A DNA stretch of 64,000 nucleotides from a virus (IMGVR_UViG_3300025141_000060:1-64000), one strand, 5' to 3'; positions 14,969-55,235 are shown, numbered from the stretch's first letter. Made by a program: numbers and translations. The notes: generated by a model not told the origin, from the letters alone.

Positions 14969-17179
14969 TTACCTAATAGTAGCTTCCGACCCGTCTATAT
15001 TCTGCTCTCGTTTAAGTCTTACACCACCACTAAGCCCAAAATTATTGCTTGTACTAGAACTGGTAGTAACAGTAAAGGCGACAGTTCTTTTGTGGTCTAT
15101 GTCCACTATAGTTTTATAACTTAAGTGTCCGTGAACAGTGTCTGAACCACTCGATGATACGTTCGGTTCTCCAATCCTTTCTCCATCAAGCCGTTGTTCA
15201 TGAGGAGCAGGAGCTAGTTTTTCGTCCGTATCAGCATCAACCATCTCAATCCAAAAGGTCTTACTTGCATCATGCTGTCTAGTGTCCCAAATACTTATGT
15301 CTAAGTCCAAGCTGTACCTCCCAGGGATAAGCTCTACCGTGACATCACCATCTGCGGGAGCACTAATAGCCGAAGGGGTTGAATATTCAGCAAAAGCCTC
15401 AGGCCAGTTCTCTACTAAATTACAATTAATATTTTTTGCATCATATAAAGGGCATTTAAATCCCACACCATTCGAATCTGCTACATAATTGGAACCATCT
15501 ATATGCACAGTATGTATAGTCGAGGTTAACTGGGGTTTAGGCACAACAGCAAAATTATCTAATTGACCAGTAATATCACCAGCAATGGTATTCACATACT
15601 TCATAATAAAATCTCTCATAGATTCAAGGCTATTATAAAGTTCGTATTTTCCTGTAGCTGGATTAGCCAAGGATAAAGGTGGGTTAGCAGCACCTACTCC
15701 AGCCCTCTCATTATATGTTAATTCAGCAGTTCTAAGGAAAGGACGGATATCAATAATATCATCTACCGTAATAACAGGACTACCCCTTTTAACAATTACA
15801 TAACATAAAGGAAGGACTGTTTGGCCTAAAGTAGTTAAATTAGATTCCGTCGCGTTATCTGCTAAAATAGGAGCTAAGTTCAAAAGATCATCAGGTGAAG
15901 GAAAATTATTTCCTACGTCTCTACCTTCTCCAAAAGGAGTATTATTAGTCCCTAACTGATCAGAAAGAGGGGATTGAATACTTAAATCTGCAAACTCAGA
16001 CAACTGCTGTTGTAGATCATAATATTTATCAGGATTATTCGCTTGGGAATCCCAAGGAGGAGTTCCAATAAAATCAGAATTGTTAATTATATCGTAGGCT
16101 ATGTCGCCTTGAAAACTCTTAGGGGTGAGGATTGCACCCGCACCCTTAACAACCCCTAAAGTAGGCTTCGTTATCTGCTGAGGTCCTCCTCCGCTATCTT
16201 TAACAATATGGGATGCAGGACTATCCACAGGATGAGAATACATAAATACTAAATCTATTCTAACTTGTGGGTCATACGTATCATTTTTGTCAATATAATC
16301 ATAATCTTCAAAAGGAGGAATGATTATTGATAACTGATCAGTAGAGTTAACTACAGAGGTCCTAAAGACCCCCTTCCATCTCCTACAGAAATCGACAGAT
16401 AGTTGCTGAAGGTCAGGGAGGTAAGGTGCTTCGAAAGCGGTATTACTTCTTTGTTGCCATACCGCCGATTTAATTTTTGGCAACATAGAAAGAGATAAAC
16501 TTCCAACTGATAAAAAGGTGGGATCTAAAACAGTAGTTAAAGTAAACGGGCCTCCGGGAACACTAGCGGAACTAATTGGTGGATCAGTTACAAATAAAGA
16601 GGCGTGATGTTGATAATGATCAAATAATCCATTATTATATAATAACTGATTAATTTCAGAACTTACCAGAGCTTGAAATAAAGGATTACTTAGAACAATC
16701 GAAGGTGTTGTATAAACAGGGCTTCGTGCTAAATCTATAGTAGCTACATCCTCAGAAAAAGATGCCCACAAATCTTGGGGGGATGAACTATAAGCATCAT
16801 TTATTCTAGCGGTAAACTTCCCTGGACGAACATATAAAACTCGATCAGAATTGGTTACAAATGGCTGTAAATCAGTAATCTTAGACAGTGGGATTCCCGT
16901 AACATCAGTATCAATCCCCATGATTTGATCTTTCAACCACAAACAGTTCTCATGGATTTGCTTAAGAGGAATATTATCTACTTCATAAAAGTAAGGATCA
17001 TTAGCCTTGTAATATCGAGGAGGGTCAGTAAACCTAAAAGGAGAGGATACAAAATCAAATGATGCGTCTATTGAAGCGTTTGTTAAATTAAGAACATTTG
17101 ATCCTCCGTCACCCCCTCCGTTTGAGTCATCGCCATAGGCGTTCATAAAAACATTAAAGTTATTCAAATAATTCATCAT
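14969..17179 (-). CDS. Tail fibre-like protein
   Basis: N-terminal anchor motif YFYEVDNIPLKQIHE shared with the adjacent spike gene; C-terminal beta-sandwich-like tip (LIPGRYSLDLDISI). Confidence 0.6.
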   Translation of the reverse strand: MMNYLNNFNVFMNAYGDDSNGGGDGGSNVLNLTNASIDASFDFVSSPFRFTDPPRYYKANDPYFYEVDNIPLKQIHENCLWLKDQIMGIDTDVTGIPLSKITDLQPFVTNSDRVLYVRPGKFTARINDAYSSSPQDLWASFSEDVATIDLARSPVYTTPSIVLSNPLFQALVSSEINQLLYNNGLFDHYQHHASLFVTDPPISSASVPGGPFTLTTVLDPTFLSVGSLSLSMLPKIKSAVWQQRSNTAFEAPYLPDLQQLSVDFCRRWKGVFRTSVVNSTDQLSIIIPPFEDYDYIDKNDTYDPQVRIDLVFMYSHPVDSPASHIVKDSGGGPQQITKPTLGVVKGAGAILTPKSFQGDIAYDIINNSDFIGTPPWDSQANNPDKYYDLQQQLSEFADLSIQSPLSDQLGTNNTPFGEGRDVGNNFPSPDDLLNLAPILADNATESNLTTLGQTVLPLCYVIVKRGSPVITVDDIIDIRPFLRTAELTYNERAGVGAANPPLSLANPATGKYELYNSLESMRDFIMKYVNTIAGDITGQLDNFAVVPKPQLTSTIHTVHIDGSNYVADSNGVGFKCPLYDAKNINCNLVENWPEAFAEYSTPSAISAPADGDVTVELIPGRYSLDLDISIWDTRQHDASKTFWIEMVDADTDEKLAPAPHEQRLDGERIGEPNVSSSGSDTVHGHLSYKTIVDIDHKRTVAFTVTTSSSTSNNFGLSGGVRLKREQNIDGSEATIR

Positions 17180-20100
17180 ATACTCCTATCTAAATCGAAC
17201 ATGTTAATTGATTTTAGTCCTGCTCCTTGTCCATATGTAGCCCCACCATTGCCTGGGTTCCCGATTCCACCCCAATGGGTTGTAGATTTATAAATAGATA
17301 CATTAGGTGAGGCTCTTCCTGCGATTGGGGGCGCGGCACAGTTCTTAGCATTTGCAAAAACATCAGCAGCCCCCTCATCCAAATAAACATTTGTTCCTCT
17401 ATTAGGATCTATCACAGAAGAGGGGAAATAATACCCAGATGCTTCGGCTTTTTGCCCTGAATACCCATATCTTGTGGTATAGTGCAAAAGACCTAGATTA
17501 GTTGAGGTAACATCGTGAATGCCGCTTGGAACCCCAATATTGCCAGAAAGATTATATCCTTGCGCTAAATGCTGCATAGGTCTTGTGTCACCTGTTGCAA
17601 ACTCATCTATTCCTGTATTAGTAGGGGTCGCAGAAACATACCCCACATATCTCAACATAGGATTAACACTGAAGAATAATCTAAAAGGCCCCTTATTTAA
17701 GAAAGATGAGTGTGGGAAATCTTTTACATCACCTGTATACGCTTTATTTATGGCGCTCATTTCTACCGTCATAAAAGCAGATGCGTCATTGAACCCTAAG
17801 CCGTAACGATCACAAACACTAAGGGTTGAGGTGTCTGGTGTAGAGCTTAATGCACCATATGCAATGGCAGATCCATCCCGCCAGTCACGAAAACCGTGTC
17901 CCCCCTCAGAGAGTCCGCTAAGGAAAGTAGATCTAGGCCCGTGATAAGGTGTGGCAGAGGGGGTTGCAGCACTCACGGCTAAATGGGAAGCATAGAGCTT
18001 AGAGGTATCGCCTATATTCCATATCCTAAGTTGGTTACAACCTCCTGCGGTTGAACTTGCATCGAAATAGGTCCCATCAGCTAAAGTATATCCCGTTAGG
18101 AAGTGAACGCTATTTGCTTTTACTATACTATTCCCAAAAGCTTGTACACACATCCCCCCCGTTGATAAGGTGCTTTGTATGGTAGCCGAAGCCGAATCAG
18201 TAAAAGGATTAGTTAATAGGTAATTATATGCAATTTTACCACCAGTAGCGGGTTGAATAAGCTGGTCATGTTCGGCTGCTGTCATAACATCAGAATCTAA
18301 ATCAACGTCTGCCAAATTAACATCTATATGGTTTGTAGCATAAGATGCTAAAGCGGCGTTAGGATAAAACTGCATAGACCCTGCACTAACGAATTTTGCT
18401 ATATTAGAATCACTAAAATCACTATTAGGAATAGCGCATACTGTATTAGGACTTCCTAAGTTCTCCATAATAAGTTGAGAATTATTCACAACCGCAGCAC
18501 AGGTTTTTCCTGTGGAGTGTAATTCAACAGAGGTATGGTTCCCTTTGTTTAGTAAATTAAACCCAGTAACATCTAAATTTTGATCCAACCTCTTATGCGG
18601 AACAAACTCTACCACTGAATCATTTTCGCCAAGAACACAGGTCCCAAACTGAACAATTGAGGTAGGTCCTCTGAAAGAGACCTTAGAAGAATTTTCTGCA
18701 CAAACCCCTGCTACATTCTCGGAATCTCCAAAGTCTGGGGATCCCACGATGATAGTAGCGCCTTTAACAGTCCCCATGAAATTAACTTGAGAAGAGTTAG
18801 AAGCTTTGAGAGCAGCACCCCTTAAGCCTGAAGTTGTGTTGCTTAAGGAACTAGTATGAATCCTTGCGTGAACCAAATCGGCTTTGGATCGGTTCACGGA
18901 GATAGCAGGTATGGGACCATACAGTTCCCCATGAGAATCGTTAAACCGTAATGCTCCAAATTTATCAGGTATATTAATTGTGGATACATCTAAATAAGGA
19001 CTAAACTCACTACTATTATTTAAGTTTAAATGACATCCGTTTCTATGGAAGAATGTTTGTGCCATTCTGTTGGAATCTTTATCCACAGAATAATCTCTTC
19101 GTACTAAACCGTTATTATATTTTATAACAGAATTGTCTGCTGTTATGCCATTTGTCGTATGATTTTCAACAGTTAATCGGTCAGTCGATACATAAGAGTT
19201 CTTTAGCTCTACACCTATTTTATTGTTATAAATATCTAGATTTCCACTAACATCAATAACAGAGTTGGTTGCTTTTATACCAACATCATTATATGCAACA
19301 GCTAAAGTGGCATCATTCATAGTAGTATAGGGTCTACTCTGTCCCCCAACAAAAGTACTATTTTCTAGTAGTATTCCTGTATCATGGTTTTGAATATTAA
19401 AAAAGTAATCACTTCCAGAGGCATAAGTTGGGTCTATCCTTGCATCCACCCTACTATTAATTAGGTGAAGCCCAATAGTCTTTCTACTATTCCTAGTTTC
19501 TCCAGGGTCATCAGTTCCTACTTCATAATTTCTATTCGCAACAAAACCCCGTGTTAATTTAACGTCTGAGTTAATAAATTTAGCCCCAACCTCTTTATTC
19601 CGTGTTACAGAACAATTTTCAATATAAGGGCTAGAGTTTACAACTGTAATACCAATATCATTCTTATAAGTACTGTTTTTAAATACAGTCCCACCACCAC
19701 TAACACCATCAACACAGAACCCGCGTAAATAAAGAGGCCCAGTGCAATCCTCTATAAGAACAGACGAAACAGAATTAGCGTAAGTAACTCCTGTCATTTG
19801 TCTGTCCCAAGTAGTTGCGGGAGTAGACCTTTGAATTATCGCTTCTGTATCCTGTCTGAAGGATGATACATCTAATGAAGAACAGGAACCATCTTTAACG
19901 TTATTTGTAGCTCCATAAGAGAAGTTTTCATAATTAAGAAAAGAAAATGTTGCCGATAGCTGGGTATCAGTGTTGAGGAAATTAGCATAGGAATTCGCTC
20001 CCACATCTACAAACCCATAATATAGTCTACTATTGCGACTTCTATTTCCAGCAAAATTAACTGATTGAGCAAAAGTTCTGTTATAATGTTGTACAAAAAG

Positions 20101-20685
20101 GGAAGAACAATTAGCGGAAGTGGATAACGCAGAAGTATTTAAAATAGTAGAACTTAAATCCACAGAGGATAATTCAGTTACATAACCTCTAGTCCTAGCC
20201 GCAGCAACACTTGACGCATTACCTAAGGCAGAAGCATTAACATGGGTAACTCCATTCCCTCTTCCCGAATAGATTTTAGCAAAACCTCTATTAATAATCT
20301 CTAAAACACCCGCACCTTCAACCCTGATATCCTTTAATTTTAAACCACCTAAATGACCACTAGCAGCAACTTCAATAAGGGTAGGGGTCCTAATTACCTG
20401 AGGAAGAGAGTCCACAGCATCCTGTAAATTTGTGAAAATATTGCGGTTATTAGGGTCAGCAGTCCCTGAAACAACTAAAGGCATTCCGTTTAAGGAAGAG
20501 GTAAAGTATCCTGTAGCTTTTTCCCAAAGGCCAAAAGTCCTTTCCTCTAGATCGTAGATAGGCTGATTGTCTTGTTCCCAATTGTAAAAAGATTGGCTAT
20601 CAAACTTTGTAACAAAGGGGTTAAAATATTTGTATAGTTCTGTTCCCGCTGAAGCAGAGTAAAGGTCATTTTGATTAAAAGGCAT
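17176..20685 (-). CDS. Tailspike with parallel beta-helix (pectin-lyase-like fold)
   Basis: FTNLQDAVDSLP lead-in helix followed by repeated GI-x-[AL]-xNS rungs (GITVVNS, GLHLINS, GILLENS, GIKATNS, GVELKNS, GITADNS). Confidence 0.75.
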   Translation of the reverse strand: MPFNQNDLYSASAGTELYKYFNPFVTKFDSQSFYNWEQDNQPIYDLEERTFGLWEKATGYFTSSLNGMPLVVSGTADPNNRNIFTNLQDAVDSLPQVIRTPTLIEVAASGHLGGLKLKDIRVEGAGVLEIINRGFAKIYSGRGNGVTHVNASALGNASSVAAARTRGYVTELSSVDLSSTILNTSALSTSANCSSLFVQHYNRTFAQSVNFAGNRSRNSRLYYGFVDVGANSYANFLNTDTQLSATFSFLNYENFSYGATNNVKDGSCSSLDVSSFRQDTEAIIQRSTPATTWDRQMTGVTYANSVSSVLIEDCTGPLYLRGFCVDGVSGGGTVFKNSTYKNDIGITVVNSSPYIENCSVTRNKEVGAKFINSDVKLTRGFVANRNYEVGTDDPGETRNSRKTIGLHLINSRVDARIDPTYASGSDYFFNIQNHDTGILLENSTFVGGQSRPYTTMNDATLAVAYNDVGIKATNSVIDVSGNLDIYNNKIGVELKNSYVSTDRLTVENHTTNGITADNSVIKYNNGLVRRDYSVDKDSNRMAQTFFHRNGCHLNLNNSSEFSPYLDVSTINIPDKFGALRFNDSHGELYGPIPAISVNRSKADLVHARIHTSSLSNTTSGLRGAALKASNSSQVNFMGTVKGATIIVGSPDFGDSENVAGVCAENSSKVSFRGPTSIVQFGTCVLGENDSVVEFVPHKRLDQNLDVTGFNLLNKGNHTSVELHSTGKTCAAVVNNSQLIMENLGSPNTVCAIPNSDFSDSNIAKFVSAGSMQFYPNAALASYATNHIDVNLADVDLDSDVMTAAEHDQLIQPATGGKIAYNYLLTNPFTDSASATIQSTLSTGGMCVQAFGNSIVKANSVHFLTGYTLADGTYFDASSTAGGCNQLRIWNIGDTSKLYASHLAVSAATPSATPYHGPRSTFLSGLSEGGHGFRDWRDGSAIAYGALSSTPDTSTLSVCDRYGLGFNDASAFMTVEMSAINKAYTGDVKDFPHSSFLNKGPFRLFFSVNPMLRYVGYVSATPTNTGIDEFATGDTRPMQHLAQGYNLSGNIGVPSGIHDVTSTNLGLLHYTTRYGYSGQKAEASGYYFPSSVIDPNRGTNVYLDEGAADVFANAKNCAAPPIAGRASPNVSIYKSTTHWGGIGNPGNGGATYGQGAGLKSINMFDLDRSI

Positions 20686-20687
20686 GT

Positions 20688-21275
20688 TTAGAAATTAATA
20701 GTCCACTTAAATAAAAGTGCAAAGTTGCTAGTTTTTTTCAAACCAGTAAAAGGTCGATAAGCTACCAAAATTGGTGCTATAGGTGATACTCCTCTAGGGT
20801 TTCTCAAAAACAACCCAATCTCATCTAGATTAGTATCCAAACCATTAGCTGTATATCTATCTAAAATTAAATTAAATCTAACAGAAGTAGGGGCTACTTT
20901 TTGAATATTAGAAAAGGGGATTCTCACAAAACCCTCAGTGCTTGCTTTGATATCCCTATTTTGTATAGGCATAAGATCTTCAAGTAAAACCTCACTGCCA
21001 GCGGTTAGATATTCAGAGGTAGCTCCTCCTGTTAAAGGGGTATTAAGCTTATAGCTAGAAGTTCCATAATTGTCAGTATCGCCGCCAGTACCTACTTGAA
21101 AATTCAAAATTTGAAAATCAGAGATTGCTCCTGCTCCAGAACCCGCAAAAAGGTGTGAAAGACCTACCCCCATCCCAGAAGTAATTACATTTTTTTCCGA
21201 GAAATGGACTTCCTCAGTCCCATCCTCAAATACTTTTACAACTTCTAAATATCCTTTTGGTTTAAATTTTTCCAT
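20688..21275 (-). CDS. Baseplate/tail-fibre adaptor protein (fibre N-terminal-domain-like)
   Basis: G-x-LEVVKV...NVITSG...ANG...DEIGLF...LVAY...KKTSNFALLFKWTINF, a pattern typical of fibre-attachment domains. Confidence 0.65.
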   Translation of the reverse strand: MEKFKPKGYLEVVKVFEDGTEEVHFSEKNVITSGMGVGLSHLFAGSGAGAISDFQILNFQVGTGGDTDNYGTSSYKLNTPLTGGATSEYLTAGSEVLLEDLMPIQNRDIKASTEGFVRIPFSNIQKVAPTSVRFNLILDRYTANGLDTNLDEIGLFLRNPRGVSPIAPILVAYRPFTGLKKTSNFALLFKWTINF

Positions 21276-24200
21276 TATTCCACTGGGTCATCACCCATAC
21301 TGCCATCAGAAGGCGAACTAAATATAGTGTTAGGTACTACCCTTGTATTATAAAAACGATTAAATCCTTGATGTAACGCATCAAAAATCCTTGCTAAGTT
21401 CCAATAGTGTACACTATTATCTAGTTGTCCACCATTAGCATTGCCATTATTTATACCCCCTTGTGCTACGGGCAATTGAATAGCAGAGACAATTAAAGAA
21501 CTAGCTATATGATTCGCATAAACTCCTTTATTTTCTTCTAAAATAAGATCATTTAGTTCGTACAAATCAACCCCACTAAAATCTACAAAGCTCTGTAGAT
21601 GATACATTTCTTCATACCATTTCCCAAAACCTTGCGTTAAAGCAGTTTGAATTTGATTACCATTTTCATCAAGAACATAATCTCCTGCCGCATCCGTTTC
21701 CCAAACAAGATCACCTACATCATGAGCAAAATTAGATCCCAACCCTACCTTGCCCGAACTAGGTCTTATTAGTTTCCATACACCACCGCTAGTATCGGGA
21801 ATAGCTTCTTTAGATTCTATTGTTATAGCCACATCGGGCGCATCATTAATATTTAAATAATTTATAGTCGGAGTCCATCTAGATGGAATATATCCAATAA
21901 AATCGTCTGGGACTAGTCTCAGTGTCAATGCTTGCCTACGTCTTCTAGGAGTTGTGGGCTGAGGGGTGTATCCACCTCGCATCCCACCCAACATCTCGGG
22001 TGGGCAAAGGACACTGCTTGTAAATGATCCGTGCATTTTTTGATCGCCTGTACTATTACCTATAGGGAAGAAAGCTTCACCCCAAGAATACTGTCTTGCA
22101 TGACTTGAGGCATCGGTTACACCTTTAAGAACATTATAAAAAGAAATCGAATCAGAAGGTATATTAAGAGGGTCTCTCGCAGGCAAAGTCGTCGCCCCTG
22201 CTATATCAGCAATAGTCGCTACAATATCCGTTAAATCAATCATAGCATGCGAGCTTACGCCTGCGGAAACTCCTGCACCACTAACAAACATTGGGACAAG
22301 CATACCTCTGTCATAAAGAGTTGCTTTAAACCCATTTGCGGTGTCGTTTTCTCCTCCCCGTCTAACGGCAGAAGGTGATAACCCAGAGCAATAAGCACCT
22401 AAGTTAAGCATCTTATCGTAAGTGGCCCCTAAACCCCCTGAGCCTGTGTAACTCCCACCCAAACTACTTGCATACCCAAGACCAATAGAAGAGGCATACG
22501 CTGCTCTCCGTCCTATATCAGGGCCTAATGCTCCATTATCGGAAGTTATAATAAAAACTGTATTCGATTTTTTCGTTTCATCCAAACCTTGTAAGAAAGA
22601 ACTTAGAGTTGAATCAAAGTTTTCTAGCATAGCATTAACTGTAACCCAAGTAGAAGACGCTGAATCCGTTGCTCCTACGCCTGCCTCTAATAAGGTATGC
22701 TGATTTATAGAGGACAACCCACTATTATATATGCCTCCTGAAGGGGGCCATGTATACGGAGTGTGTGGTATGTTGGGCGAAACATACATGAAAAAGGGCT
22801 CTTGGGCTGTATTAAAATAAGCACTAGCAGCCGAGAAGATGTAGTTTGTAGTATAAGAACTTGCGTCCCCTTGCCCGTACTCAACCTCGTCCGCAGACTG
22901 CTTAAAGCTTACATAATTGGAGTCAGAAACGGTATAAGTATCAGCAGTGGGAACACCTTCCTTCGTTGGTATCCCTGGTTTGGCGACAAAATAATTAACA
23001 TATCCCATATTTTTACCACCAGTATAGTACGAAGTTGATCCATTGTTAGGCCAATCATCTGGCTCAATAAACGCACCACTATTAGGATTAAGTCCAGGTA
23101 TTGGATCAGCATCCAAATTAGAGAAAGTAGCTAAATAATCATCCCAGTAACCCTTTAAAGCAATGTGTGACCAACCATCACCTTTCCTAGTCGGGCTATT
23201 ATCTTCACAATAAACAATATCATCTTCCCATATAGATAAGTGCCATTTACCAAACATAGCACACTGATAATCAATATCAGGTCTCTTTAAAAAGTTTCCT
23301 ATGACAGGAGTAGTTGTTATAGTATTCACTCCCCCCAATCCGTCCTCAACCTGATTAGTTAAGTTTTCAAGATCTCCGGTCTTATTTAAAAACCTAAACC
23401 CAGAATTCAGGCCCTTTAAACCACCTCGCGTCCTTCTTGCCGAACTTGGGACAATTCCTATCCCAGGACCCCAGAACCCACGACCTGTGCCTCCGAAATT
23501 TTTAGTACTAAAATTATATCTTCCTGTAAGTAAAGCTGCTCTGGTGGGAGCGCAGGCTGGTTGCGCCCTAACATTAAACATTTGCATTCCAGCAGCAGCA
23601 ATTGCACTTAAGGTAGGGGTATAAGGATATAAACTACTTCCATTAACAGGATCATCTAAAACACTAAACGGGGTGGCGGCTGTATGGTTATCATTCTGTA
23701 TTTCGTAAGGATTAATAGCATCGTAGTTTCCTAAATGATCCATCCCTACATCATCTATCATAATAAGAACAACATTCTTTCGATCACCTCCAGGCGTAGT
23801 TTCCGAACTCTCCTCATCTACGATAAACTTTAATTGCCAATCAATAACTAAAGAAAAATCGCTTGTTTTTGTTATTCCTGATCCATCTGCTAACTGTTTA
23901 TATGCCACTAAAACTGATTGATCTTTTTTTATATTAGCCTTTCCATCTCTAATAAATAAACCAAATTCTGTGATAGGCACATTATTCAAATTATTTGCCA
24001 TCTCTTCTGTTAACGTCAATCTATAGTGTACCACTCCATCTATAACTTTAGTGGAATGAGAATCAGGTAAAACGGCAAACACCCCCTCATCATACTGAGT
24101 AGCGAAAGCAGCATCAAAATTTGAAGGATGATACTTGAGAATTTCGTGAGTATTAATCCGAATCTCTGAGTCTTTTCCATAATCATCTTCAAGCATTAAA

Positions 24201-24442
24201 GGATTATTGAGAGTACTTATATATTTTGCTGTGCCTGCTTCAACATGATCATCTGGGTTTAGTCTGCCTAAACCAACTTGAAAATAGCCTACGAGATGAT
24301 CTGAAAGATCAGTGGATCCCGTATCCGTAAAGATGTTGCAAAGCCCAACACCAAGTCCATCGGTAAGAATGTTATGATCTTTACATACACACTCTTCTGT
24401 ACCATCCTTAAAAACTTTAGTAATTTCTACTGATCCTTTCAT
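21275..24442 (-). CDS. Fibre-adaptor domain (aa 1-~207) fused to formylglycine-dependent sulfatase (family S1)
   Basis: N-terminus paralogous to 20688-21275. Then KNVVLIMIDDVG, TPTL, CAPTRAALLTGRY, GKWHL, PFFMYVSPNIPHTP, NTVFIITSDNG, GFKATLYDRGMLVPM, DIVATIADIAG. Confidence 0.9.
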   Translation of the reverse strand: MKGSVEITKVFKDGTEECVCKDHNILTDGLGVGLCNIFTDTGSTDLSDHLVGYFQVGLGRLNPDDHVEAGTAKYISTLNNPLMLEDDYGKDSEIRINTHEILKYHPSNFDAAFATQYDEGVFAVLPDSHSTKVIDGVVHYRLTLTEEMANNLNNVPITEFGLFIRDGKANIKKDQSVLVAYKQLADGSGITKTSDFSLVIDWQLKFIVDEESSETTPGGDRKNVVLIMIDDVGMDHLGNYDAINPYEIQNDNHTAATPFSVLDDPVNGSSLYPYTPTLSAIAAAGMQMFNVRAQPACAPTRAALLTGRYNFSTKNFGGTGRGFWGPGIGIVPSSARRTRGGLKGLNSGFRFLNKTGDLENLTNQVEDGLGGVNTITTTPVIGNFLKRPDIDYQCAMFGKWHLSIWEDDIVYCEDNSPTRKGDGWSHIALKGYWDDYLATFSNLDADPIPGLNPNSGAFIEPDDWPNNGSTSYYTGGKNMGYVNYFVAKPGIPTKEGVPTADTYTVSDSNYVSFKQSADEVEYGQGDASSYTTNYIFSAASAYFNTAQEPFFMYVSPNIPHTPYTWPPSGGIYNSGLSSINQHTLLEAGVGATDSASSTWVTVNAMLENFDSTLSSFLQGLDETKKSNTVFIITSDNGALGPDIGRRAAYASSIGLGYASSLGGSYTGSGGLGATYDKMLNLGAYCSGLSPSAVRRGGENDTANGFKATLYDRGMLVPMFVSGAGVSAGVSSHAMIDLTDIVATIADIAGATTLPARDPLNIPSDSISFYNVLKGVTDASSHARQYSWGEAFFPIGNSTGDQKMHGSFTSSVLCPPEMLGGMRGGYTPQPTTPRRRRQALTLRLVPDDFIGYIPSRWTPTINYLNINDAPDVAITIESKEAIPDTSGGVWKLIRPSSGKVGLGSNFAHDVGDLVWETDAAGDYVLDENGNQIQTALTQGFGKWYEEMYHLQSFVDFSGVDLYELNDLILEENKGVYANHIASSLIVSAIQLPVAQGGINNGNANGGQLDNSVHYWNLARIFDALHQGFNRFYNTRVVPNTIFSSPSDGSMGDDPVE

Positions 24443-37533: not shown

Positions 37534-37546
37534 TTAAGTTCCTTCT

Positions 37547-38767: not shown

Positions 38768-38768
38768 A

Positions 38769-45905: not shown

Positions 45906-46670
45906 TTATTCTTTCTTCTTTGCTTCTTGGAGTCTTTGCTCGATCAAGCAATGGTCTGTAAATTCAGGGCATAGAGACTTATAAGAACACCAATTGCAAA
46001 ACTGATTCCTAATAGGAACTAGATCAGTTTTCTTGGACTTTCTAATCTTCCAAACATCATCAACAACGGATCTGATGTGTGCATGAATTTGATTAGTAGT
46101 ATATTGTACGTTTACAAAAGTATTTGTTAGTGGGTAGTAATGTGCGGCAGTTATCTTGTTAAGCGGCACGTTATACAGTTTATGGACTGCATAAACATAA
46201 CCCTTTAGTTGGGGGTCTTGGTAAAGTTCGACCTTACTCTTCTCCCTCTTGGATGTTTTGTAGTCTATAACTAAATAACCACCCTCTTTTCCTTTTATTA
46301 TCCTATCAATATATCCATTAATAGTGATACCTTCTGCTACTTCCAGATCGAAGTGTTGTTCTGATATACCTATTTCAGGTAAAGTAGCGTTAAATCTTAA
46401 GAAATTCCTTAAACAAGGAAGAACTTTACTATTATAAGATGAAGCAAAAGTATATTTTTCTTTTTTTTCTTCTGCCAATTTCTCTAATGTATCTAAATCG
46501 GTCGCCTCGACCCCATCTTCAAAAATTTGGTGAATATATGAACCAAAATGAAGGGCATCGGTGTTTGATAGATCGTAGTCAGCAATGCGGTCTACATAGC
46601 GATAGCGATATTTAAGTTTACATTGGTTGAACGTGTCGCGTTTTGAATTACTAATTGTATTTATGAACAT
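45906..46670 (-). CDS. PD-(D/E)XK exonuclease, Cas4/RecB-like with Fe-S cysteines
   Basis: FNQCKLKY, FGSYIH, GYIDRI...VIDYKT, QLKGY, CNWCSYKSLC. ATG at 46670 with GAGGA RBS is preferred over the track's TTG at 46685. Confidence 0.85.
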   Translation of the reverse strand: MFINTISNSKRDTFNQCKLKYRYRYVDRIADYDLSNTDALHFGSYIHQIFEDGVEATDLDTLEKLAEEKKEKYTFASSYNSKVLPCLRNFLRFNATLPEIGISEQHFDLEVAEGITINGYIDRIIKGKEGGYLVIDYKTSKREKSKVELYQDPQLKGYVYAVHKLYNVPLNKITAAHYYPLTNTFVNVQYTTNQIHAHIRSVVDDVWKIRKSKKTDLVPIRNQFCNWCSYKSLCPEFTDHCLIEQRLQEAKKKE

Positions 46671-47675
46671 ATGTTTAATCCTCAATTTATTAAAGACTAC
46701 CTTACCGAAAAGTTGAATACGGATTATCGTCTATCTTCTAATAGTGCGGAGTTAATCATCCCCTCTGTATTTATAGAGGATGATTATAAAAGGCATATGA
46801 GCGTTAACCTTGAAACAGGACTCTGGCAGTGCTTTAAAACGGGCAATCAAGGTAATTTCATTAAACTTTACTCAATTTTAGAGGGGATTAGCTACAGGGC
46901 TGCTGAATCAAAGCTCCTTTTTCAAGGCGCTGAGACGGGTTTATGGGATTTATGGGAGGACCAAACTGCAAAACCCAAAGAAACCCACGAAATAACGCAA
47001 AAACTAGACACCAGCGGCTTTATTCCAGTAAATATTGATAGTTATGACTCAAATAACCAACTCGTAGTTAGAGCATGGAAGTTTTTGATGGACAGAAAGC
47101 TCTTTAATCTTAAGGAGTTTGACGAAGAGCCGTATTATGTGGCTTGCGAGGGTAAATATCGAGGAAGACTTATTATCCCCTTTAAAGATTACGATGGAGA
47201 GATCTTCTTTTTCCAAGCCAGAAGCCTTATGCATGGGCTTACTCCTAAGTACCTGAATCCTAGCTCTGAAAATGGTGTAAAATCGAGCAATATTCTTTAC
47301 CCCTTCGACTTTGAGCGTGAACACCTATGCGTTTGCGAAGGACCCTCCGATGCGATTACGCTCAATTTAAATGGCTTAAATGCAACATGTACCGTAGGTA
47401 GCACAATCTCCAATGTTCAAATGCAAACCTTAAGGGAGTTCGAAGGTAGAATTATCTTAACTTACGACAACGATGCTGCTGGGACCCGTGGAATTGAAAA
47501 GTTCGAACACTTAAGAAAGAAGTACCTGATGCCGACATTTTCCATTTGCACTCCTCCCATTAAATATAAAGACTGGAATGAAGCTCATCAAGCAGGAGAG
47601 GATTTATATGAATGGTTTACTGAAAAAACCTACGAATACAACTACGATAATAAAACGCTTAGAAGCTTAGATTAA
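46671..47675 (+). CDS. DNA primase (DnaG-like, TOPRIM)
   Basis: WQCFKTG, GRLIIPF, FQARS, KYLNP, VCEGPSDA, YDNDAAG, KDWNE. Confidence 0.9.
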   Translation: MFNPQFIKDYLTEKLNTDYRLSSNSAELIIPSVFIEDDYKRHMSVNLETGLWQCFKTGNQGNFIKLYSILEGISYRAAESKLLFQGAETGLWDLWEDQTAKPKETHEITQKLDTSGFIPVNIDSYDSNNQLVVRAWKFLMDRKLFNLKEFDEEPYYVACEGKYRGRLIIPFKDYDGEIFFFQARSLMHGLTPKYLNPSSENGVKSSNILYPFDFEREHLCVCEGPSDAITLNLNGLNATCTVGSTISNVQMQTLREFEGRIILTYDNDAAGTRGIEKFEHLRKKYLMPTFSICTPPIKYKDWNEAHQAGEDLYEWFTEKTYEYNYDNKTLRSLD

Positions 47676-49547
47676 TTAAGTCTGCTTTACCTGAATAACA
47701 ATGGAGTTAGGACCTCTATTTCCTGGGTTTCTTTGGTTACTGTCTAAAATCTTAATTTGAAGTTCAGGAAAGCTTCTCCCATTAGCAGTGTAAGCATCCC
47801 AGCGTAATACAGTGTTGTAATCTTCTGCGTCTATCTTTTTTACGACTCCCGTAGAAAATCTAGCAGGAAAATGACTAGGGCAACCCATCAGCAAACCAAT
47901 ACCCTGAGGACCCCAATCAACAACTAAAGCTCCGTTGTTTGGACCATCAATATCTGGTCCATGAACGTCCAAAGGACGGAACCAAGCATTTCTTCTATAT
48001 GATATTGCTAAATATCTTTCTTCAGTTGGACAGTCATCCGCCAGATTAGCATGAACACAATTATTTTCTATCCACATCTCACTTCGATCAATATCTCTTC
48101 TTAGTAAAAGAAGCATTGTTTTAGAGTCAGCAACATTGGCTACCATATCTGGATCATCAAAAGCTTGATCATGAGCAAATAGTGTAATTTTTTGAACACC
48201 CTCTACGATTGCTGCTGGGTCTGGAAAATGAACGCATTGAGGTGGGAATTTCTCTTTAAAATGTACTCGATCAGCAGGTCCTGTTATTGGTCTCGCGCCT
48301 TTATTGGTTATAAACTTTTTAAATGCCGTAAAATGAGCCTCCTCCCACGCCCCGTACCTATTTTCAGAAGCTCCTCCAAAAGACATGAGATCCAAATTAT
48401 CTACACCCTCATAAGCATAACTAACACCATTGCAAGCATCATGCGGTGCGAGATGGTAATTATCATAACAATGCATGTCTGGCAAGCCTGCACGTTGAGG
48501 ATAATATTTTGAATCGTGGCTGTGTCCTATACTATGTCCAATTTCATGAAGGGTTACTTGAGTAACTCTTGCATCACCTAAAACTTGCGCTGCACTTGTC
48601 AAGTCTAAGAGTGCAGGAGGGTCATTAGCAAGACCTGCATCAGGCATTACAACGGTAAATACGAAAGGATCGCCCCCCGCATTACCTCCTAGATCATGGA
48701 CTTCGGGACAACCACCAAGAACAATTCCAATTTTTAGATCATATCCCACCAGATCCACACCCCCATCCCAGGATGCGCCATTCCCGTAACCATTATCCAT
48801 AAACCAGTTCTTCATCAACGTGCGAAAACCATCAGGTCCACCACAATCACAAGTCATCATGTGGCCAGGATTGCCACAAGGGTTTGTTGGGTTTGGGGAA
48901 TCAGGATTACCTACCCAAACAAAATCTAAATCAGAATTATTTGCTCCTGTATCTGGCATATTAGAACCACCAACTAATTCAAGCTGACCATGCGTGTAAT
49001 CCCTTATGCCTTTTTTAAGGTTATTACCCATTAGAGTCATGAACTCTGCCTGAGTCCAATCTGGACCCGTATAATTCTCTAGCTCGCTTGTCGAGGGCCA
49101 AAAAATTCCTACAACGGTACGGACTTCGGTTGATGTACCCCAACCAGCACCATAACCCACGGTGTCTGATGCTTTAATACCTTTTTCACCAACTTTTTTA
49201 AATTTACTTTCTATATCTTTAAAAGGGGTTTCTGGAGGAGTCATATGCCTAAAATCAGGATCTGGGGTGAGGTCGCAAGAATCAACAGAGTAGGTTCCGT
49301 CAGGATTTACTGTATGAGCACCTCCCCCAGGGTGAATACATTCTTTTCCTGGAGGCAAAAAATATCCCTTATAGTTATACGGATTGCTCATTCCGTTTAC
49401 CTCAGGACAAGTAGTATTACCCTCAGCATCGGGGTAGTTTCCGTTTGGGCCGATAGCACCCCGCCCACCAACACCTGCTCTAGGTACTCCAGCCCAAGGT
49501 GATCGTCCTCTTAATATATTCTTTCCCGATGCTCCTATTTTTGCCAT
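47676..49547 (-). CDS. Zinc metalloprotease, metzincin (M6/M11-like), paralog 1
   Basis: HEIGHSIGHSH (HExxHxxGxxH; HEIGH at 48534-48548) and Met-turn DLMSF; AGGAG RBS. Confidence 0.8.
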   Translation of the reverse strand: MAKIGASGKNILRGRSPWAGVPRAGVGGRGAIGPNGNYPDAEGNTTCPEVNGMSNPYNYKGYFLPPGKECIHPGGGAHTVNPDGTYSVDSCDLTPDPDFRHMTPPETPFKDIESKFKKVGEKGIKASDTVGYGAGWGTSTEVRTVVGIFWPSTSELENYTGPDWTQAEFMTLMGNNLKKGIRDYTHGQLELVGGSNMPDTGANNSDLDFVWVGNPDSPNPTNPCGNPGHMMTCDCGGPDGFRTLMKNWFMDNGYGNGASWDGGVDLVGYDLKIGIVLGGCPEVHDLGGNAGGDPFVFTVVMPDAGLANDPPALLDLTSAAQVLGDARVTQVTLHEIGHSIGHSHDSKYYPQRAGLPDMHCYDNYHLAPHDACNGVSYAYEGVDNLDLMSFGGASENRYGAWEEAHFTAFKKFITNKGARPITGPADRVHFKEKFPPQCVHFPDPAAIVEGVQKITLFAHDQAFDDPDMVANVADSKTMLLLLRRDIDRSEMWIENNCVHANLADDCPTEERYLAISYRRNAWFRPLDVHGPDIDGPNNGALVVDWGPQGIGLLMGCPSHFPARFSTGVVKKIDAEDYNTVLRWDAYTANGRSFPELQIKILDSNQRNPGNRGPNSIVIQVKQT

Positions 49548-49571: not shown

Positions 49572-49588
49572 ATGCCCTATTATAAGGT

Positions 49589-49873
49589 ATGGAATATTTT
49601 GTCAATTTTTTAGTGTGGATTTTTACTTTAATGGGTATAACAATTATTGTTACCCAATCTTCTATCTTTAATGCTATTAGACAGAAGATAGCAAAACTTA
49701 ATAGTTATTTAGGAATGCTAGTTAGTTGCCCACTATGCTTCTCTTTTTGGGCGGGTTTATTTCTATCCCATTTTTATACAAGCTTGACGGGAAATATGTT
49801 TTTTGATGCATTACTTGCAAGCGGAGTATCTTGGTATATGACCTATGAATCTCCTCAAATGCATCACCACTGA
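49589..49873 (+). CDS. Small membrane protein, DUF1360-like
   Basis: Hydrophobic segments and LGMLVSCPLCFSFWAG (L-x2-CPxC-x3-W). Confidence 0.7.
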   Translation: MEYFVNFLVWIFTLMGITIIVTQSSIFNAIRQKIAKLNSYLGMLVSCPLCFSFWAGLFLSHFYTSLTGNMFFDALLASGVSWYMTYESPQMHHH

Positions 49874-49906
49874 AAGAAAAACGGAGATCGTTCTGTAGAG
49901 TGATTT

Positions 49907-51595: not shown

Positions 51596-51601
51596 AATTA
51601 T

Positions 51602-53614
51602 TTAACCTTTAGTAATTTTTATCTTAATCTTCCGTCTTTGGTTTGGAGCTACTCCCTGCTCCTCATCAACAACATAAACTTTCCATCCAGGAAAAACTAG
51701 TCCTGCTGAGGTAAATGACTCAATTTCAAACTTTTCATTATTAGGGTCAACGCCAAGGTCCACAACTCGCTCCATCGCTGCGAAAGAATTTAATCCGTTA
51801 ACCGTACTCCAAGGACCCCAATAAACCATCAAAACACCTAAGTCACTTGCTTTATATCTAGGGCTTTCTATATAACCAAAAGGCCCTGATTGTTCCATAT
51901 GAGTGTGGGATCGCCTTCTGGGACCATACTGATCAATGTGCCCCCTAGAGTAGTAAACAATATTTAAAAATCTTCTAGGAACAGGATCCAAAGCCATCCA
52001 AAAGGGAGGTTTTGGTCTATTCGATTCTAAAACTGTTTTAATCATCACCTTTTTTCCCTCTGGTGGGTCTTCTGGGAATTTAAACATATAATCTGCGGCA
52101 TCTAACCAACCTTCCCAACTCCAATTAGAAGCATTCTGATTTTCGCTTGTTAAATCATGCGTCATATCATCGGGAATAATACCCCTCCAATTTTGCATAG
52201 GTACATTAGGTTGTACAGTTCCTCCCCCAAAAGCGGTGTATCCCATTTTCTTTATTTTGGGAGCCTCTTGTGAAACATTATACGCCCCTACCGTTCCCAT
52301 AACATCGTAAATATCATTACCTACATAAAAGATAGCTGCATCTTGACACCCACCTCCATCAGGACCAGCGGATAAAAAGTAACATGGTGTATTTTGGCTA
52401 GAGTAGGAACTACTGCAATCTGCATTAGGCCAATTTTGCTCATTATATAAAAAAGAACAACCTCCATACTGTGGGACGTTGAAATTATGTAAATGAGAAA
52501 ACCCAGCACCAAAACCTTGAGTAACTAAATTATGGGCATACTCATGCAAAGCCATATTAATATAGCCTCTATTTTCGTGAACATCTTTAAAATCAGCCCA
52601 TTTTAAAATACCGTTGTCCCAAGCATCAAAATTCATAGAACCATAACACCCATACCATGGAGATGTAGGATAGTCAGTAGTTGCGTAAGGTATTTGCCAC
52701 TCCCTATCATCAGTCATACCCCAATATGGAGTTCCAGGTAAACCCCTAACGGGGCTCAAGAAAATATATAAATGCTTCCTTCCATCATCCCCTGTTGGAG
52801 ATGCGCCACCTGCCGTCCAGCAACCTGCAACAATATGAACAATTAAATTATATTCATCAAAATCAGAATCATTTTCAATGGTATCATACATTTTAGTTCT
52901 AGAGCCTGAAGTGTTACATAATTTATTAAGTAGCGCACTATTGCTGCCACCTTGAACCCCTGCACAATTTGGTCCCGTGTAAGCGGTTGTGCTTCCACAG
53001 GGCTCAGTACCGTCAAACATATACTTCGTTCCTTGGTAAACATCAGGAGAATCACTATTTTTACCAATTAAAGTAATGTTTCCTAAGAAAGCGGCTCTAA
53101 AGGCTTCAGCCCAATCTTTAGATACTACAGTGTCAAGATATGTTTGGTCCCACTTATGCTTGCTTCCGTATTCCTGTTTATCCCTATCATTAACTAATTT
53201 ATATACTTCTTCGGATGGAGCACCAGGGTTAGGACCATTCAAACACATGTTCCCATCACCCATCTTCCATAAAACAATTGCTGTTTTTTGGTTTTTTAAG
53301 AAAAGAGGAGGAGGCGTCTCCGAATTAGGGCCTACCGTCATATTTTGTGTGGGGGTTTCTGGCAATGGTTGTCCACGAAACTGTTCTCCATAAGTTTTAG
53401 GAAATTCTTCAGCATACTCTAACGCCTTGGCGTAAAAAGCTTTTTCTTCTTCTACCGTATCAGGTAATTCTTTGTTACTATCTGGCAAATAACAATGCCA
53501 CGCTGATTGATAAGGCCAACCAGTTTTGTTGTTTTTTCCATCAGAAAGTATATCCCTACTTAAATATCTCTTTACTGCCCCAGGGCCTTTAAAAATTCCT
53601 CTTCTTCCTACCAT
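51602..53614 (-). CDS. Zinc metalloprotease, metzincin, paralog 3 (most divergent)
   Basis: HEYAHNLVTQGFGAGFSH (insertion before third His) and DVMG. ATG at 53614 with GGAG RBS is preferred over the track's 53626. Confidence 0.75.
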   Translation of the reverse strand: MVGRRGIFKGPGAVKRYLSRDILSDGKNNKTGWPYQSAWHCYLPDSNKELPDTVEEEKAFYAKALEYAEEFPKTYGEQFRGQPLPETPTQNMTVGPNSETPPPLFLKNQKTAIVLWKMGDGNMCLNGPNPGAPSEEVYKLVNDRDKQEYGSKHKWDQTYLDTVVSKDWAEAFRAAFLGNITLIGKNSDSPDVYQGTKYMFDGTEPCGSTTAYTGPNCAGVQGGSNSALLNKLCNTSGSRTKMYDTIENDSDFDEYNLIVHIVAGCWTAGGASPTGDDGRKHLYIFLSPVRGLPGTPYWGMTDDREWQIPYATTDYPTSPWYGCYGSMNFDAWDNGILKWADFKDVHENRGYINMALHEYAHNLVTQGFGAGFSHLHNFNVPQYGGCSFLYNEQNWPNADCSSSYSSQNTPCYFLSAGPDGGGCQDAAIFYVGNDIYDVMGTVGAYNVSQEAPKIKKMGYTAFGGGTVQPNVPMQNWRGIIPDDMTHDLTSENQNASNWSWEGWLDAADYMFKFPEDPPEGKKVMIKTVLESNRPKPPFWMALDPVPRRFLNIVYYSRGHIDQYGPRRRSHTHMEQSGPFGYIESPRYKASDLGVLMVYWGPWSTVNGLNSFAAMERVVDLGVDPNNEKFEIESFTSAGLVFPGWKVYVVDEEQGVAPNQRRKIKIKITKG

Positions 53615-53615
53615 A

Positions 53616-55235
53616 TTAAACTCCAACGGGCTCTATTAAAACCTTAATCCTATCTGGCCCTTGTTCATCCGAGGTTCCTGCATTCTCTAGAACCCTAATG
53701 TTTAATGTTTTGTAATTTACCCCATTACCAAGATATCCGTTGTAAGTTGCTGTGGGGGTTCCTGTGGTGGTAATTATTTCTGCATTAAAGGTTTCCAACG
53801 AGCAGCTTCCATAGTTATTCAAATGATTACAATTTGTAATACTAGTATTATTACGGCAAGGACCCCAACTTGTTACAAGAGCACCATTTTGCCAATAAGG
53901 ATCTCTATACCAAGCATTTTTTCTATAATAAAGAGCTAAGTATCGGGGCTCTCCAACACCTATAGAATCACATGGAGGAAGCTCAGTAATATCTGCATCC
54001 CTTCTTATTTTTAAAAGCATAGGCTTCCCTGTAGCTAACACATCTTGAGTTCTAGGATCATCAAACTTTCTATCCATTGCGTATAAATAACCTTCCCAAC
54101 TCTCCCCGTTAGCTAAAGTTATTGTGTTAGCAGCAGGTAAGTGTGCAACCCCTTGGTTCCCTTCATGAGAAGCCCACATATAAGGCTGCCCCATCAGACT
54201 CTTTTTAAGAGCATCAGGGTGTGGTTCTCGCCAAACACTAAAGTTATTTCTTCCAGGAGTCGCACCCCAAGCCATAGTACTATAATGATCGGCTCCGCCA
54301 TAGCTGTAGCTTACCTGGGTACATCTTCCTTCGCCAAAAATAGGCCCGTTTAACCTATGCTCTTCACCACAATCAGTATTTAAATAATAAGCTGAATCAT
54401 GTGTGTATCCAATACCATGTAAAATTTCATGAATAGCGACTTGTCTTACATTACCAAACCCTAAAACGCTTGGAGCGAAAGTATCAGAAACAGTATCTTG
54501 GGGATATGGAGGAATGTTTGAGATTGTAGCATCCTCTGGATCACTCATATAGACAAACAAAGTAGGATCATAGCTCGCTGAACCACCAATAGTAACTGAA
54601 TCACTGCAACCCATAATAATAGCTAATTTCACTTCATAATTAGCATCAGAGTATCCATTATTGTTAAACCAACTTATTATGTTAGGTTTAATAGTACCAG
54701 CCCCTCCACATGTACACTGGTACTGATTATTAGTACCACAAATAGTTGATGGAATCGAGCCCACAAAAACTGCATCAACCTCAGAAGTAGCAGATCCTAT
54801 TAAGGTAGTAGTTCCATAGGTCATATCGGAAATAGCTTCTTGCATCTGCTTTCCAAAAAATTGCCGTATAGCTTCGGGGGTCCACTCATCAACTACAGCC
54901 CCTTGAGGCCCTACAGCCGCAAATTCCGCGTTAAGAGGTGAAGTATCTGGAATAAAAATACCAATTACTGTTCTGAGAGCACCACTTTGTAACTTATTGC
55001 TTCCAGGACCCACTGCTAGAGAAGCTGGTCTTGTCGAAACACTTGGGAAGGCTACTTCAGTATAATCCCCTGACTCATTTCCAGGAAGAATACAAGATAC
55101 TCCTGGTGGGAGATAGTATTGTCCACCACGAAACTCATCCCCCGTGAATCTAGTGCTATAAACCTGCTGCCTCCCTGGAGAGGTTAAATTTTGCATCCCT
55201 GCTGGGGTTAACAAACTTCTTGCTTTTCCTATCAT
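53616..55235 (-). CDS. Zinc metalloprotease, metzincin, paralog 4
   Basis: HEILHGIGYTH and Met-turn STMAW. Confidence 0.8.
   Translation of the reverse strand: MIGKARSLLTPAGMQNLTSPGRQQVYSTRFTGDEFRGGQYYLPPGVSCILPGNESGDYTEVAFPSVSTRPASLAVGPGSNKLQSGALRTVIGIFIPDTSPLNAEFAAVGPQGAVVDEWTPEAIRQFFGKQMQEAISDMTYGTTTLIGSATSEVDAVFVGSIPSTICGTNNQYQCTCGGAGTIKPNIISWFNNNGYSDANYEVKLAIIMGCSDSVTIGGSASYDPTLFVYMSDPEDATISNIPPYPQDTVSDTFAPSVLGFGNVRQVAIHEILHGIGYTHDSAYYLNTDCGEEHRLNGPIFGEGRCTQVSYSYGGADHYSTMAWGATPGRNNFSVWREPHPDALKKSLMGQPYMWASHEGNQGVAHLPAANTITLANGESWEGYLYAMDRKFDDPRTQDVLATGKPMLLKIRRDADITELPPCDSIGVGEPRYLALYYRKNAWYRDPYWQNGALVTSWGPCRNNTSITNCNHLNNYGSCSLETFNAEIITTTGTPTATYNGYLGNGVNYKTLNIRVLENAGTSDEQGPDRIKVLIEPVGV

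Follow-up and report, generated by a model that had tools for sequence, protein, structure and literature searches.

A sulfatase on baseplate-row carriers, a metzincin-like protease island and a probable gp5-like spike in a T4-type phage contig

Does a phage that encodes a sulfatase, a tailspike-like fibre and four zinc peptidases, and no recognisable lysozyme, use them as one machine for breaching the envelope of its host? The question is raised by the viral stretch IMGVR_UViG_3300025141_000060:1-64000 (hereafter the window, i.e., the whole 64,000-nucleotide stretch that was analysed), which is 64 kb out of a 74,990-bp contig with a CheckV completeness of ~67%, and of which the minus strand holds nearly all genes. 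The first-pass annotation of this window had proposed a coordinated system, encoded in one morphogenesis region, that would bind, desulfate, depolymerise and then proteolyse the host surface. The analysis reported here points, with a probability that we put slightly above even, to three separate things and not to one system, i.e., a virion sulfatase module, a separately inherited protease island and a lysozyme-less gp5-type spike.

The sulfatase and its two carriers

The sulfatase gene is located between a gp7-like gene and a fibre gene, and its enzyme domain is fused to an anchoring domain. The protein and its neighbours in the adaptor gene row are as follows (positions counted from the first letter of the window; aa, amino acids; nt, nucleotides):

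21275..24442, minus strand: 1055-aa protein consisting of an N-terminal adaptor domain of ~205 aa and a family S1 formylglycine-type sulfatase (from PF00884, motifs and conservation)
nt 21503-23782, minus strand: sulfatase domain within that protein, aa ~221-980, with the Cys297 codon at 23552-23554
20688..21275, minus strand: 195-aa bare adaptor-domain protein (phrog_5417, PHROG match 5.5e-9), paralogous to aa 1-206 of the sulfatase protein
24439..26292, minus strand: 617-aa protein of the adaptor row, conserved towards both termini and variable in a middle insert of ~260 aa

Both halves of the earlier claim of a sulfatase joined to an adaptor hold. The 1055-aa protein matches Pfam family PF00884 (Sulfatase) at 81.3 bits against a cut-off of 25, which is also passed by its homologues in the related records G004 and L005 (records are cited by such handles where they need to be told apart). 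The motifs DD230/231, C297-A-P-T-R301 followed by AALLTGR, GKWH401, PH560, SDN636 (within SDNG) and K706 can be read in its sequence, and ten catalytic residues (i.e., D230, D231, C297, R301, K399, H401, H560, D635, N636 and K706) are invariant in 18 aligned phage homologues sharing 26-57% identity. Within the maturation motif C/S-x-P-x-R, C297 and R301 never vary, and P299 hardly does, across these 18 sequences. Altogether, the metal ligands (DD ... DN) and the catalytic Lys/His pairs of S1 sulfatases are all present and all invariant, which argues for selection on catalysis and not merely on fold. Judged from these intact catalytic residues, the enzyme is apparently a working one.

The domain belongs to a phage-only clade of ~30 clusters, many of which stem from Tara and other marine metagenome sources. 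An E-value step from 1e-84 to 1e-21 precedes the first cellular-type sulfatase, and any cellular sulfatase is at most 26% identical to the clade. The closest solved relatives in a PDB sequence search were carbohydrate sulfatases, including kappa-carrageenan sulfatase, with weak overall similarity. A 59-kb record of high GC content (L124/G009), whose sulfatase is 26% identical, was set aside as unrelated. In full-text literature searches no paper on a phage-borne sulfatase was found, the matches being concerned with host sulfatases, with 'FGE-sulfatase' C-type-lectin folds in the targets of diversity-generating retroelements (DGRs) and with phage-encoded formylglycine-generating enzyme (FGE). 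A phage baseplate-module sulfatase seems to be undescribed for any phage.

With regard to its anchoring, aa 1-206 of the sulfatase protein are paralogous to the adjoining 195-aa protein (36% identity, 7e-24 in BLAST), which is itself conserved in G001 and in G004-G008. The 617-aa protein is placed among the adaptors by gene order and by the motif reading of the first-pass annotation, since neither the 195-aa nor the 1055-aa protein was matched to it in an all-against-all BLAST. In all relatives examined the gene order is gp5-like, 888 aa, gp25, gp6, gp7-like, 617, 1055, 195 and 1169.

Comparison among relatives (the sulfatase-bearing records being all fragments, 30-67% complete) revealed that the enzyme is found on two different carriers. 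An adaptor-borne sulfatase is present in every close relative (at least 52% identity in the 888-aa protein) of which the adaptor region is covered, i.e., L002, L003, L004, G004 (where an extra insert brings the protein to 1355 aa), G008 and L110. A more distant subclade (L005, G006 and G007) has bare adaptors and carries the sulfatase as a C-terminal fusion to its counterpart of the 888-aa protein, yielding proteins of 1682-1708 aa. In a tree of the sulfatase domain, the copies of this second type form one supported clade (95/93) nested among the adaptor-borne copies, suggesting a single relocation of the sulfatase. On either carrier the enzyme is always the C-terminal cargo. Since it moved between two proteins of the baseplate row and was C-terminal cargo each time, it is best explained as an enzyme displayed on the virion, and from its carriers and gene order it is very probably a virion (baseplate-module) protein.

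Two side observations concern these carriers. In G001, at 95463-98327 (L097:15463-18327), the paralogue of the sulfatase-carrying adaptor bears an unrelated cargo of ~730 aa without a Pfam match, and this different cargo on the same adaptor suggests that the adaptor acts as an exchangeable socket. Furthermore, G006 encodes the 888-aa homologue and the sulfatase as a single fused open reading frame (ORF) of 1708 aa, which in G007 (35402-40725, L137/L138) is divided into 1117 and 657 aa, either genuinely or through a frameshift or an assembly error.

The protease island and a probable spike that lacks a lysozyme

The four peptidase genes, the genes that bound them and the putative spike gene are the following:

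53616..55235, minus strand: peptidase paralogue 1, 539 aa, zinc motif H269-H279 at nt 54399-54431, Met321
51602..53626, minus strand: paralogue 2, 674 aa, the most divergent, HEYAH at residue 361, 42% identical to its orthologue in L006/L007
49907..51595, minus strand: paralogue 3, 562 aa, HEILH at residue 271, 38% identical to paralogue 1
49589..49873, plus strand: DUF1360 protein of 94 aa within the protease array (PF07098, 24.4 bits)
47676..49547, minus strand: paralogue 4, 623 aa, HEIGH at residue 334, Reprolysin_5 under cut-off
45906..47675, both strands: PD-(D/E)XK nuclease (minus) and DnaG-type primase (plus), from Pfam and PHROGs, separating the proteases from the baseplate genes
55239..57176, minus strand: conserved 331-aa protein and gp26-like hub protein (T4_baseplate, PF12322 4.5e-12), upstream of the protease insertion
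37547..38767, minus strand: likely gp5-like central spike of 406 aa, with OB-fold and beta-helix-like repeats (from Atlas features and sequence reading)

The earlier count of four metalloproteases stands, as HExxH occurs among 44 ORFs only in these four paralogues, whose pairwise identity is 24-38% (BLAST). H269, E270, H273, H279 and M321 are invariant in 15 sequences of the family, corresponding to the motif HExxHxxGxxH with a downstream Met, and G276 of this motif is invariant among the five closest sequences. The weak PDB profile matches of the family are all metzincins, and an alignment with the astacin profile puts M321 on the Met-turn (i.e., the Met of SIMHY) in a weak match (E 0.014). 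An AlphaFold model of paralogue 1, built from the alignment of 15 sequences, was of moderate confidence (predicted local distance difference test score, pLDDT, of 66.5; predicted template modelling score, pTM, of 0.74). When this predicted model was compared with solved structures by VIA-align, the InhA2 zymogen came first with a Z of 12.5 over 322 residues and several domains, followed by ADAM17 (Z 9.3), adamalysin (Z 8.7) and archaemetzincin (Z 7.8), with ulilysin also in the Z 7-9 range; Foldseek retrieved InhA2 at 8e-4. None of the curated peptidase families in Pfam was matched over its cut-off (the best being Reprolysin_5 at 19.5 bits versus 27, in one paralogue), and there was no PHROG match. 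On the strength of the motif and the predicted fold, the four paralogues are taken to be metzincin-type zinc peptidases of an undescribed small family, with 17 relatives in all among 1.84 billion representative proteins (exhaustive profile search) and no match in scans of IMG/VR. Their first ~80 residues are disordered and basic and lack a signal-peptide core, which makes a propeptide plausible.

The array forms a 7.5-kb insertion between the 331-aa hub-module gene and the primase gene. In ten of ten related records (G001, G002, G005, G006, G007, G008, L050, L059, L066 and L075) it is missing at that junction, the primase following the 331-aa gene either directly or after one small ORF, and the array is thus an insertion specific to this genome. 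Elsewhere, the family is found as a single gene beyond the terminase, surrounded by small ORFs (G005), as three tandem copies flanked by small ORFs (L006/L007) or as two tandem copies that are 91% and 57% identical to paralogue 4 (L008), so that its copy number ranges from 1 to 4 across genomes. By synteny, the position of the proteases beside tail genes in this window would be accidental, and their virion role is unproven since that position is not conserved in relatives.

As to their expression, the first three protease genes are packed behind the 331-aa gene with gaps or overlaps of 3-11 nt, suggesting late expression. The T4 late-promoter motif TATAAATA was not enriched in the sequence (15 observed versus 11 expected) and was not placed before genes, and sigma-70-like promoters and terminators were at or below shuffle level.

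It was also observed that the DUF1360 gene stands on the opposite strand beside protease genes in three contexts (here, at 6019-6306 of L006 for L006/L007, and at 3591-3896 of G005), and that it adjoins the nuclease gene in G001 and G008, both of which are without the array.

The metzincins might have no place in the virion at all, but be intracellular (serving host takeover or anti-defence) or act at lysis, as accessory genes duplicating in an arms race. Their lack of a signal peptide, their variable genomic position (often among small non-structural ORFs), their copy number of 1-4 and the restriction of this tiny family to phage-looking contigs would all suit such a role. The close packing behind hub-module genes seen here does not, nor does the InhA-like multidomain build with C-terminal beta-domains typical of extracellular proteases, and the conserved cysteines would be better suited to an oxidising environment. 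We consider a non-virion role possible, at clearly less than even chances. In the reading that we prefer, i.e., that of a separately inherited island, proteins with an InhA/M6-like multidomain fold and a leader of ~80 aa are encoded at a junction of hub and replication genes, where the island was inserted, and are probably zymogens.

The spike is the third component. The 406-aa protein shares 192 features with Gp5_OB clusters (Atlas score 0.94), and its sequence has an OB-like N-terminal start and beta-helix-like repeats with only ~90 aa in between, where a GH24 lysozyme is not present. No Pfam, PHROG, GenBank-phage or hhalign match was obtained for it, and the earlier description of a gp5-like spike without a lysozyme domain is likely on the Atlas evidence, although neither Pfam nor hhalign linked the protein to gp5. 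At 406 aa, this likely gp5-type spike could not accommodate a lysozyme. In Atlas, Gp5_OB clusters with proteins of 330-367 aa have 60-155 members, indicating that lysozyme-less proteins of the gp5 type are common among uncultured phages.

The first-pass annotation had further recognised no muralytic domain. Indeed, seven muralytic Pfam families (Phage_lysozyme, PF00959; SLT; M23; Amidase_2; M15_4; GH19; GH108) had no match in this contig (~67% of the genome), the answers for GH19 and GH108 being weak as their control searches gave no match either. The same seven families are, however, equally without a match in the complete relatives G001 and G002, which carry neither the sulfatase nor the proteases. 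Hence the lack of a lysozyme is either a lineage-wide property or a detection limit, and is no evidence that sulfatase or proteases replace a lysozyme. The lysozyme-less spike would then characterise the lineage as a whole, instead of being a replacement peculiar to this genome. The endolysin of the lineage belongs to another family or is too divergent to be detected.

Together, these data bear on the idea that sulfatase, fibre, lectin-like inserts and proteases co-evolved to breach a sulfated glycoprotein envelope and to replace the spike lysozyme. In its favour, all of the enzymes lie on one strand of one contig, three protease genes are coupled to the 331-aa gene, and no muralytic domain was found in the contig. 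The ten records without the array at the junction include three that do bear the sulfatase, however. Specifically, G008 has the sulfatase-adaptor and a lone 184-aa ORF at the array site; G006 and G007 have the sulfatase on the 888-aa carrier, with the 331-aa gene adjoining the primase gene; and no protease match was obtained anywhere in the 46-67 kb of these three records. Conversely, the protease genes of G005 and L007 have small ORFs as neighbours and are distant from the baseplate genes; the relatives that are complete and devoid of either enzyme likewise lack a recognisable muralytic family; and the supposed single morphogenesis region is split by the nuclease and primase genes. Across these relatives, of which the sulfatase-bearing ones are fragments, the components thus occur largely independently, with no positive sign that sulfatase and protease array are co-inherited, so that a coordinated four-step system has become highly unlikely.

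The putative host-recognition module and its proposed role

The remaining genes of the baseplate row are the following:

17176..20685, minus strand: conserved fibre/tailspike-like protein of 1169 aa, probably a right-handed parallel beta-helix
26293..32796, minus strand: gp7-like baseplate wedge protein of 2167 aa (PF09684, Tail_P2_I, 1.3e-6)
32796..34870, minus strand: gp6-like (537 aa) and gp25-like (154 aa) wedge genes (Baseplate_J and phrog_219, 2e-34; GPW_gp25)
34867..37533, minus strand: conserved baseplate-module protein of 888 aa with a weakly LamG-like C-terminus, the sulfatase carrier in the sister subclade

In the explanation that we favour, a host-recognition module follows downstream of gp25, gp6 and the gp7-like gene, and would consist of three adaptor-position genes and then the conserved beta-helix fibre. 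At least two of the adaptor-position genes share the ~200-aa domain, i.e., the bare 195-aa protein and the 1055-aa protein with its sulfatase cargo. The sulfatase would most likely sit at the baseplate periphery of the virion, with Cys297 converted to formylglycine inside the infected cell. As a receptor-processing step, it would then take sulfate esters off a sulfated glycan on or around the host surface, and this desulfation might open the way to fibre binding and tail contraction. The domain, its motifs and conservation, the two-carrier fusion and the synteny are established by the data, and virion display, enzymatic activity, substrate and order of steps are inferred.

The 1169-aa protein, earlier called a beta-helix tailspike, is a probable tailspike-like beta-helix fibre. 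It matches PF13229 under the cut-off (20.1 bits, E 1.8e-5, at nt 19564-19776), displays invariant N-S pairs at residues 350, 372, 410, 442, 474 and 518 (an Asn-Ser ladder with a spacing of ~22-44 residues) and has Atlas feature matches to beta-helix clusters. Every relative has it at full length, whether or not that relative bears the sulfatase, which makes it part of the core gene set and no dedicated partner of the sulfatase.

Less was left of the carbohydrate-binding and lectin-like domains that had been read into this row. For the 617-aa and 2167-aa proteins, the supposed inserts resembling carbohydrate-binding modules (CBMs) found no Pfam or PDB match. The insert of the 617-aa protein is real only as an indel, given that the 416-aa homologue in L005 aligns to aa 1-141 and 403-614 only, and it has no PHROG match either. 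In the 2167-aa protein, the C-terminal ~800 aa are variable, with homologues of 1512-2215 aa aligning over aa 3-1350. The LamG protein of the first-pass annotation is probably the 888-aa protein, for which the assignment is weak: PF13385 (Laminin_G_3) lies just under threshold in the C-termini of three homologues and is not seen in the window's own copy. Indeed, the Laminin_G_3 and Gp5_OB Pfam models had no match in the contig even at E values up to 1, and PDB sequence and profile searches returned nothing for the 888-aa, 1169-aa and 617-aa families.

Several points weigh against the three-part explanation. Attachment of the adaptors to the baseplate rests on gene order, as the adaptor could not be connected to T4 gp8-gp12 by hhalign. 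For the beta-helix and the gp5-type spike, the assignments draw on matches below threshold or on shared features. The fragment records may have the protease elsewhere, the G005 copy being located beyond the terminase side, which is not covered in G006-G008. No FGE (PF03781) or radical-SAM maturase (PF04055) was found in G000, G004, G006, G007 and G008 (all fragments), so that the conversion of Cys297 would depend on the host or on an unsampled part of the genome. Finally, enzymes of the S1 fold also comprise phosphonate- and phosphate-ester hydrolases.

In the hhalign comparison, ten local families were set against T4 gp5-gp12 and wac, and the sole result was a similarity of a 104-aa protein to gp53 at 80% probability. 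The adaptors as homologues of gp10 or gp11 are unproven, having no hhalign match.

The last two counterpoints lead to the thought that the domain has a sulfatase fold without sulfatase chemistry, being either an unmatured binding module or a hydrolase of phosphate or phosphonate esters (e.g., in phosphodiester-linked surface polymers). The five records without a maturase gene, the large insertions in the domain and its distance from cellular sulfatases would fit, and the alkaline-phosphatase superfamily is promiscuous. Nevertheless, invariance of the ten catalytic residues and of CxPxR over such deep divergence would be unexpected for a mere binding module, and we regard this alternative as decidedly unlikely.

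Alternatively, a virion sulfatase might work on the surrounding matrix (i.e., sulfated algal or exopolymer gels, or marine-snow polysaccharide) for passage or retention of the particle. Intact catalytic residues and virion carriers would fit this equally well, as would the carbohydrate sulfatases among the nearest solved relatives and the marine metagenome origin. Its place in the host-recognition row beside fibre genes is rather that of a receptor-specific enzyme, however, and the source name of one clade member bears the label TARA_018_DCM '<-0.22', which is read as the <0.22 um viral size fraction and hence as free virions, not particle-attached material. An action on the matrix is therefore judged unlikely, and receptor processing at the host surface is the role that we prefer for the sulfatase.

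Lineage, host and known systems

By PHROGs and Pfam, the phage is a T4-type myovirus, with tail tube, sheath, gp15-like and neck proteins, gp23 major capsid protein and gp21 prohead protease, as well as gp6, gp25, the giant Tail_P2_I/gp7-like protein and a gp26-like hub protein; portal and large terminase genes lie just outside the window. Its capsid protein is at most 34% identical to those of GenBank phages (the best being an uncultured 595-kb phage, followed by cyanophages at ~29%), and no GenBank phage matched the sulfatase protein, the 888-aa protein or the 406-aa protein, suggesting that the clade has no close cultured relative. The lineage is large in metagenomes, however, with at least 427 loci of the 888-aa protein in IMG/VR. 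The complete relatives G001 and G002 (~130 kb each) are colinear with this contig and share 97% identity in the 12.7 kb over which they were compared.

Some further genes stand out in this comparison. The prohead protease gene (8700-10217, minus strand) encodes 505 aa here versus 309-415 aa in relatives and 261 aa in G007; its first ~280 aa are conserved and its C-terminal ~220 aa are a lineage-specific extension. Of the 1148-aa protein after the head genes (11511-14957, minus strand), only the C-terminal half aligns with relatives (618-1058 aa), the N-terminal ~480-570 aa being unique to this genome and without a domain match. The 542-aa protein at 43333-44961 (minus strand) has hydrophobic segments and helical repeats like those of a tape-measure protein (gp29-like) and diverges fast, with 26-33% identity to relatives. 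Four tRNA genes (Ile-TAT, Asn-GTT, Leu-TAA and Arg-TCT) are present at 30189-31175 of G001 (L094 10189-11175); a scan of 62-75 kb of this contig, its final 13 kb, gave none.

For the host, the first-pass annotation had suggested Planctomycetota or Verrucomicrobiota, and the sulfatase gives this guess no support: its clade is phage-only and, after the steep drop in E-value, no closer to cellular enzymes than the 26% identity given above, so that the domain phylogeny is silent on the host. The appeal to strong Shine-Dalgarno (SD) sites against a Bacteroidota host holds in part, since an SD-like 5-mer core precedes 19 of 61 genes over a background of 4.5%, but this use is only moderate and argues mildly against Bacteroidota. 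Two other leads emerged. One is G002 (L064/L145), which corresponds to QCKN01000003.1, a 130,604-bp contig that belongs to the single-cell genome 'Prochlorococcus sp. AG-409-P03'; the other is a locus with 32% identity in a metagenome-assembled genome of Altibacter. T4-like cyanophages normally carry psbA and hli. Neither gene was found in the complete G001 and G002, so that hallmark genes of cyanophages lend no support to the Prochlorococcus label, and as both genomes are without the sulfatase, the lead is weak for the sulfatase subclade. The record QCKN01000003.1 stems either from an unusual phage of Prochlorococcus or from a particle sorted along with the cell. As a speculation to which we assign only a slim chance, a virus-borne sulfatase acting as receptor processor (the first of its kind), the lack of a recognisable peptidoglycan hydrolase and the accessory metzincins of some members could together point to a host with an outer layer of sulfated glycoprotein or glycan and not a classical exposed wall, e.g., an S-layer marine archaeon or a planctomycete-like bacterium.

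Two findings keep their interest, i.e., as far as residues and synteny allow, a conserved, catalytically intact and carrier-switching S1 sulfatase in the baseplate row of an uncultured marine T4-like clade, and a small new metzincin family. To our knowledge, phage tail enzymes described to date either cleave glycans or deacylate them. If the present reading is true, a tail-borne sulfatase would be a new chemistry for viral receptor preparation, and abundant open-ocean microbes would expose sulfated surface polymers that matter in infection. A host-type maturation of Cys to formylglycine would moreover tie virion infectivity to a host enzyme and help to narrow down the host. Unlinking the protease island and the missing lysozyme, in turn, stops an unsupported story of a four-step machine.

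Among known systems, T4 gp5 resembles the 406-aa protein in the gp5-like Atlas features and in preceding the wedge genes, and differs in that the protein here has no lysozyme domain. The putative metzincins share HExxHxxGxxH, the downstream Met, the predicted fold with further domains and an N-terminal leader with InhA2 (MEROPS M6, PDB 4YU5) and with adamalysin/ADAM (M12B), from which they differ in having no signal peptide and no Pfam peptidase family over cut-off, and in forming a tiny family on phage-looking contigs. The adaptor row recalls T4 gp10-gp11-gp12, with the same order of gp6, gp7, adaptors and fibre and with small paralogous adaptors before the fibre gene; in the absence of sequence or profile similarity to gp8-gp12 (hhalign), this analogy is positional only. 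With family S1 sulfatases (e.g., human arylsulfatase A, GalNAc-6-sulfatase and the bacterial kappa-carrageenan sulfatase S1_16), the phage domain shares the same ten residues, the C-x-P-x-R-x4-TG motif and the C-terminal subdomain, whereas it is fused to baseplate carriers, lacks a signal peptide, measures ~760 aa versus ~480 and has no maturase gene nearby. A parallel in architecture is offered by enzymatic tail fibres and tailspikes (i.e., capsule or O-antigen depolymerases, the SGNH deacetylase gp63.1 of G7C, and sialidases), in which the enzyme is likewise a C-terminal cargo on a modular N-terminal anchor, encoded in the host-recognition row beside a beta-helix fibre and swapped between relatives (as in G001). 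In contrast to these, the chemistry of the phage sulfatase would be the hydrolysis of sulfate esters by an enzyme that needs its Cys modified to formylglycine.

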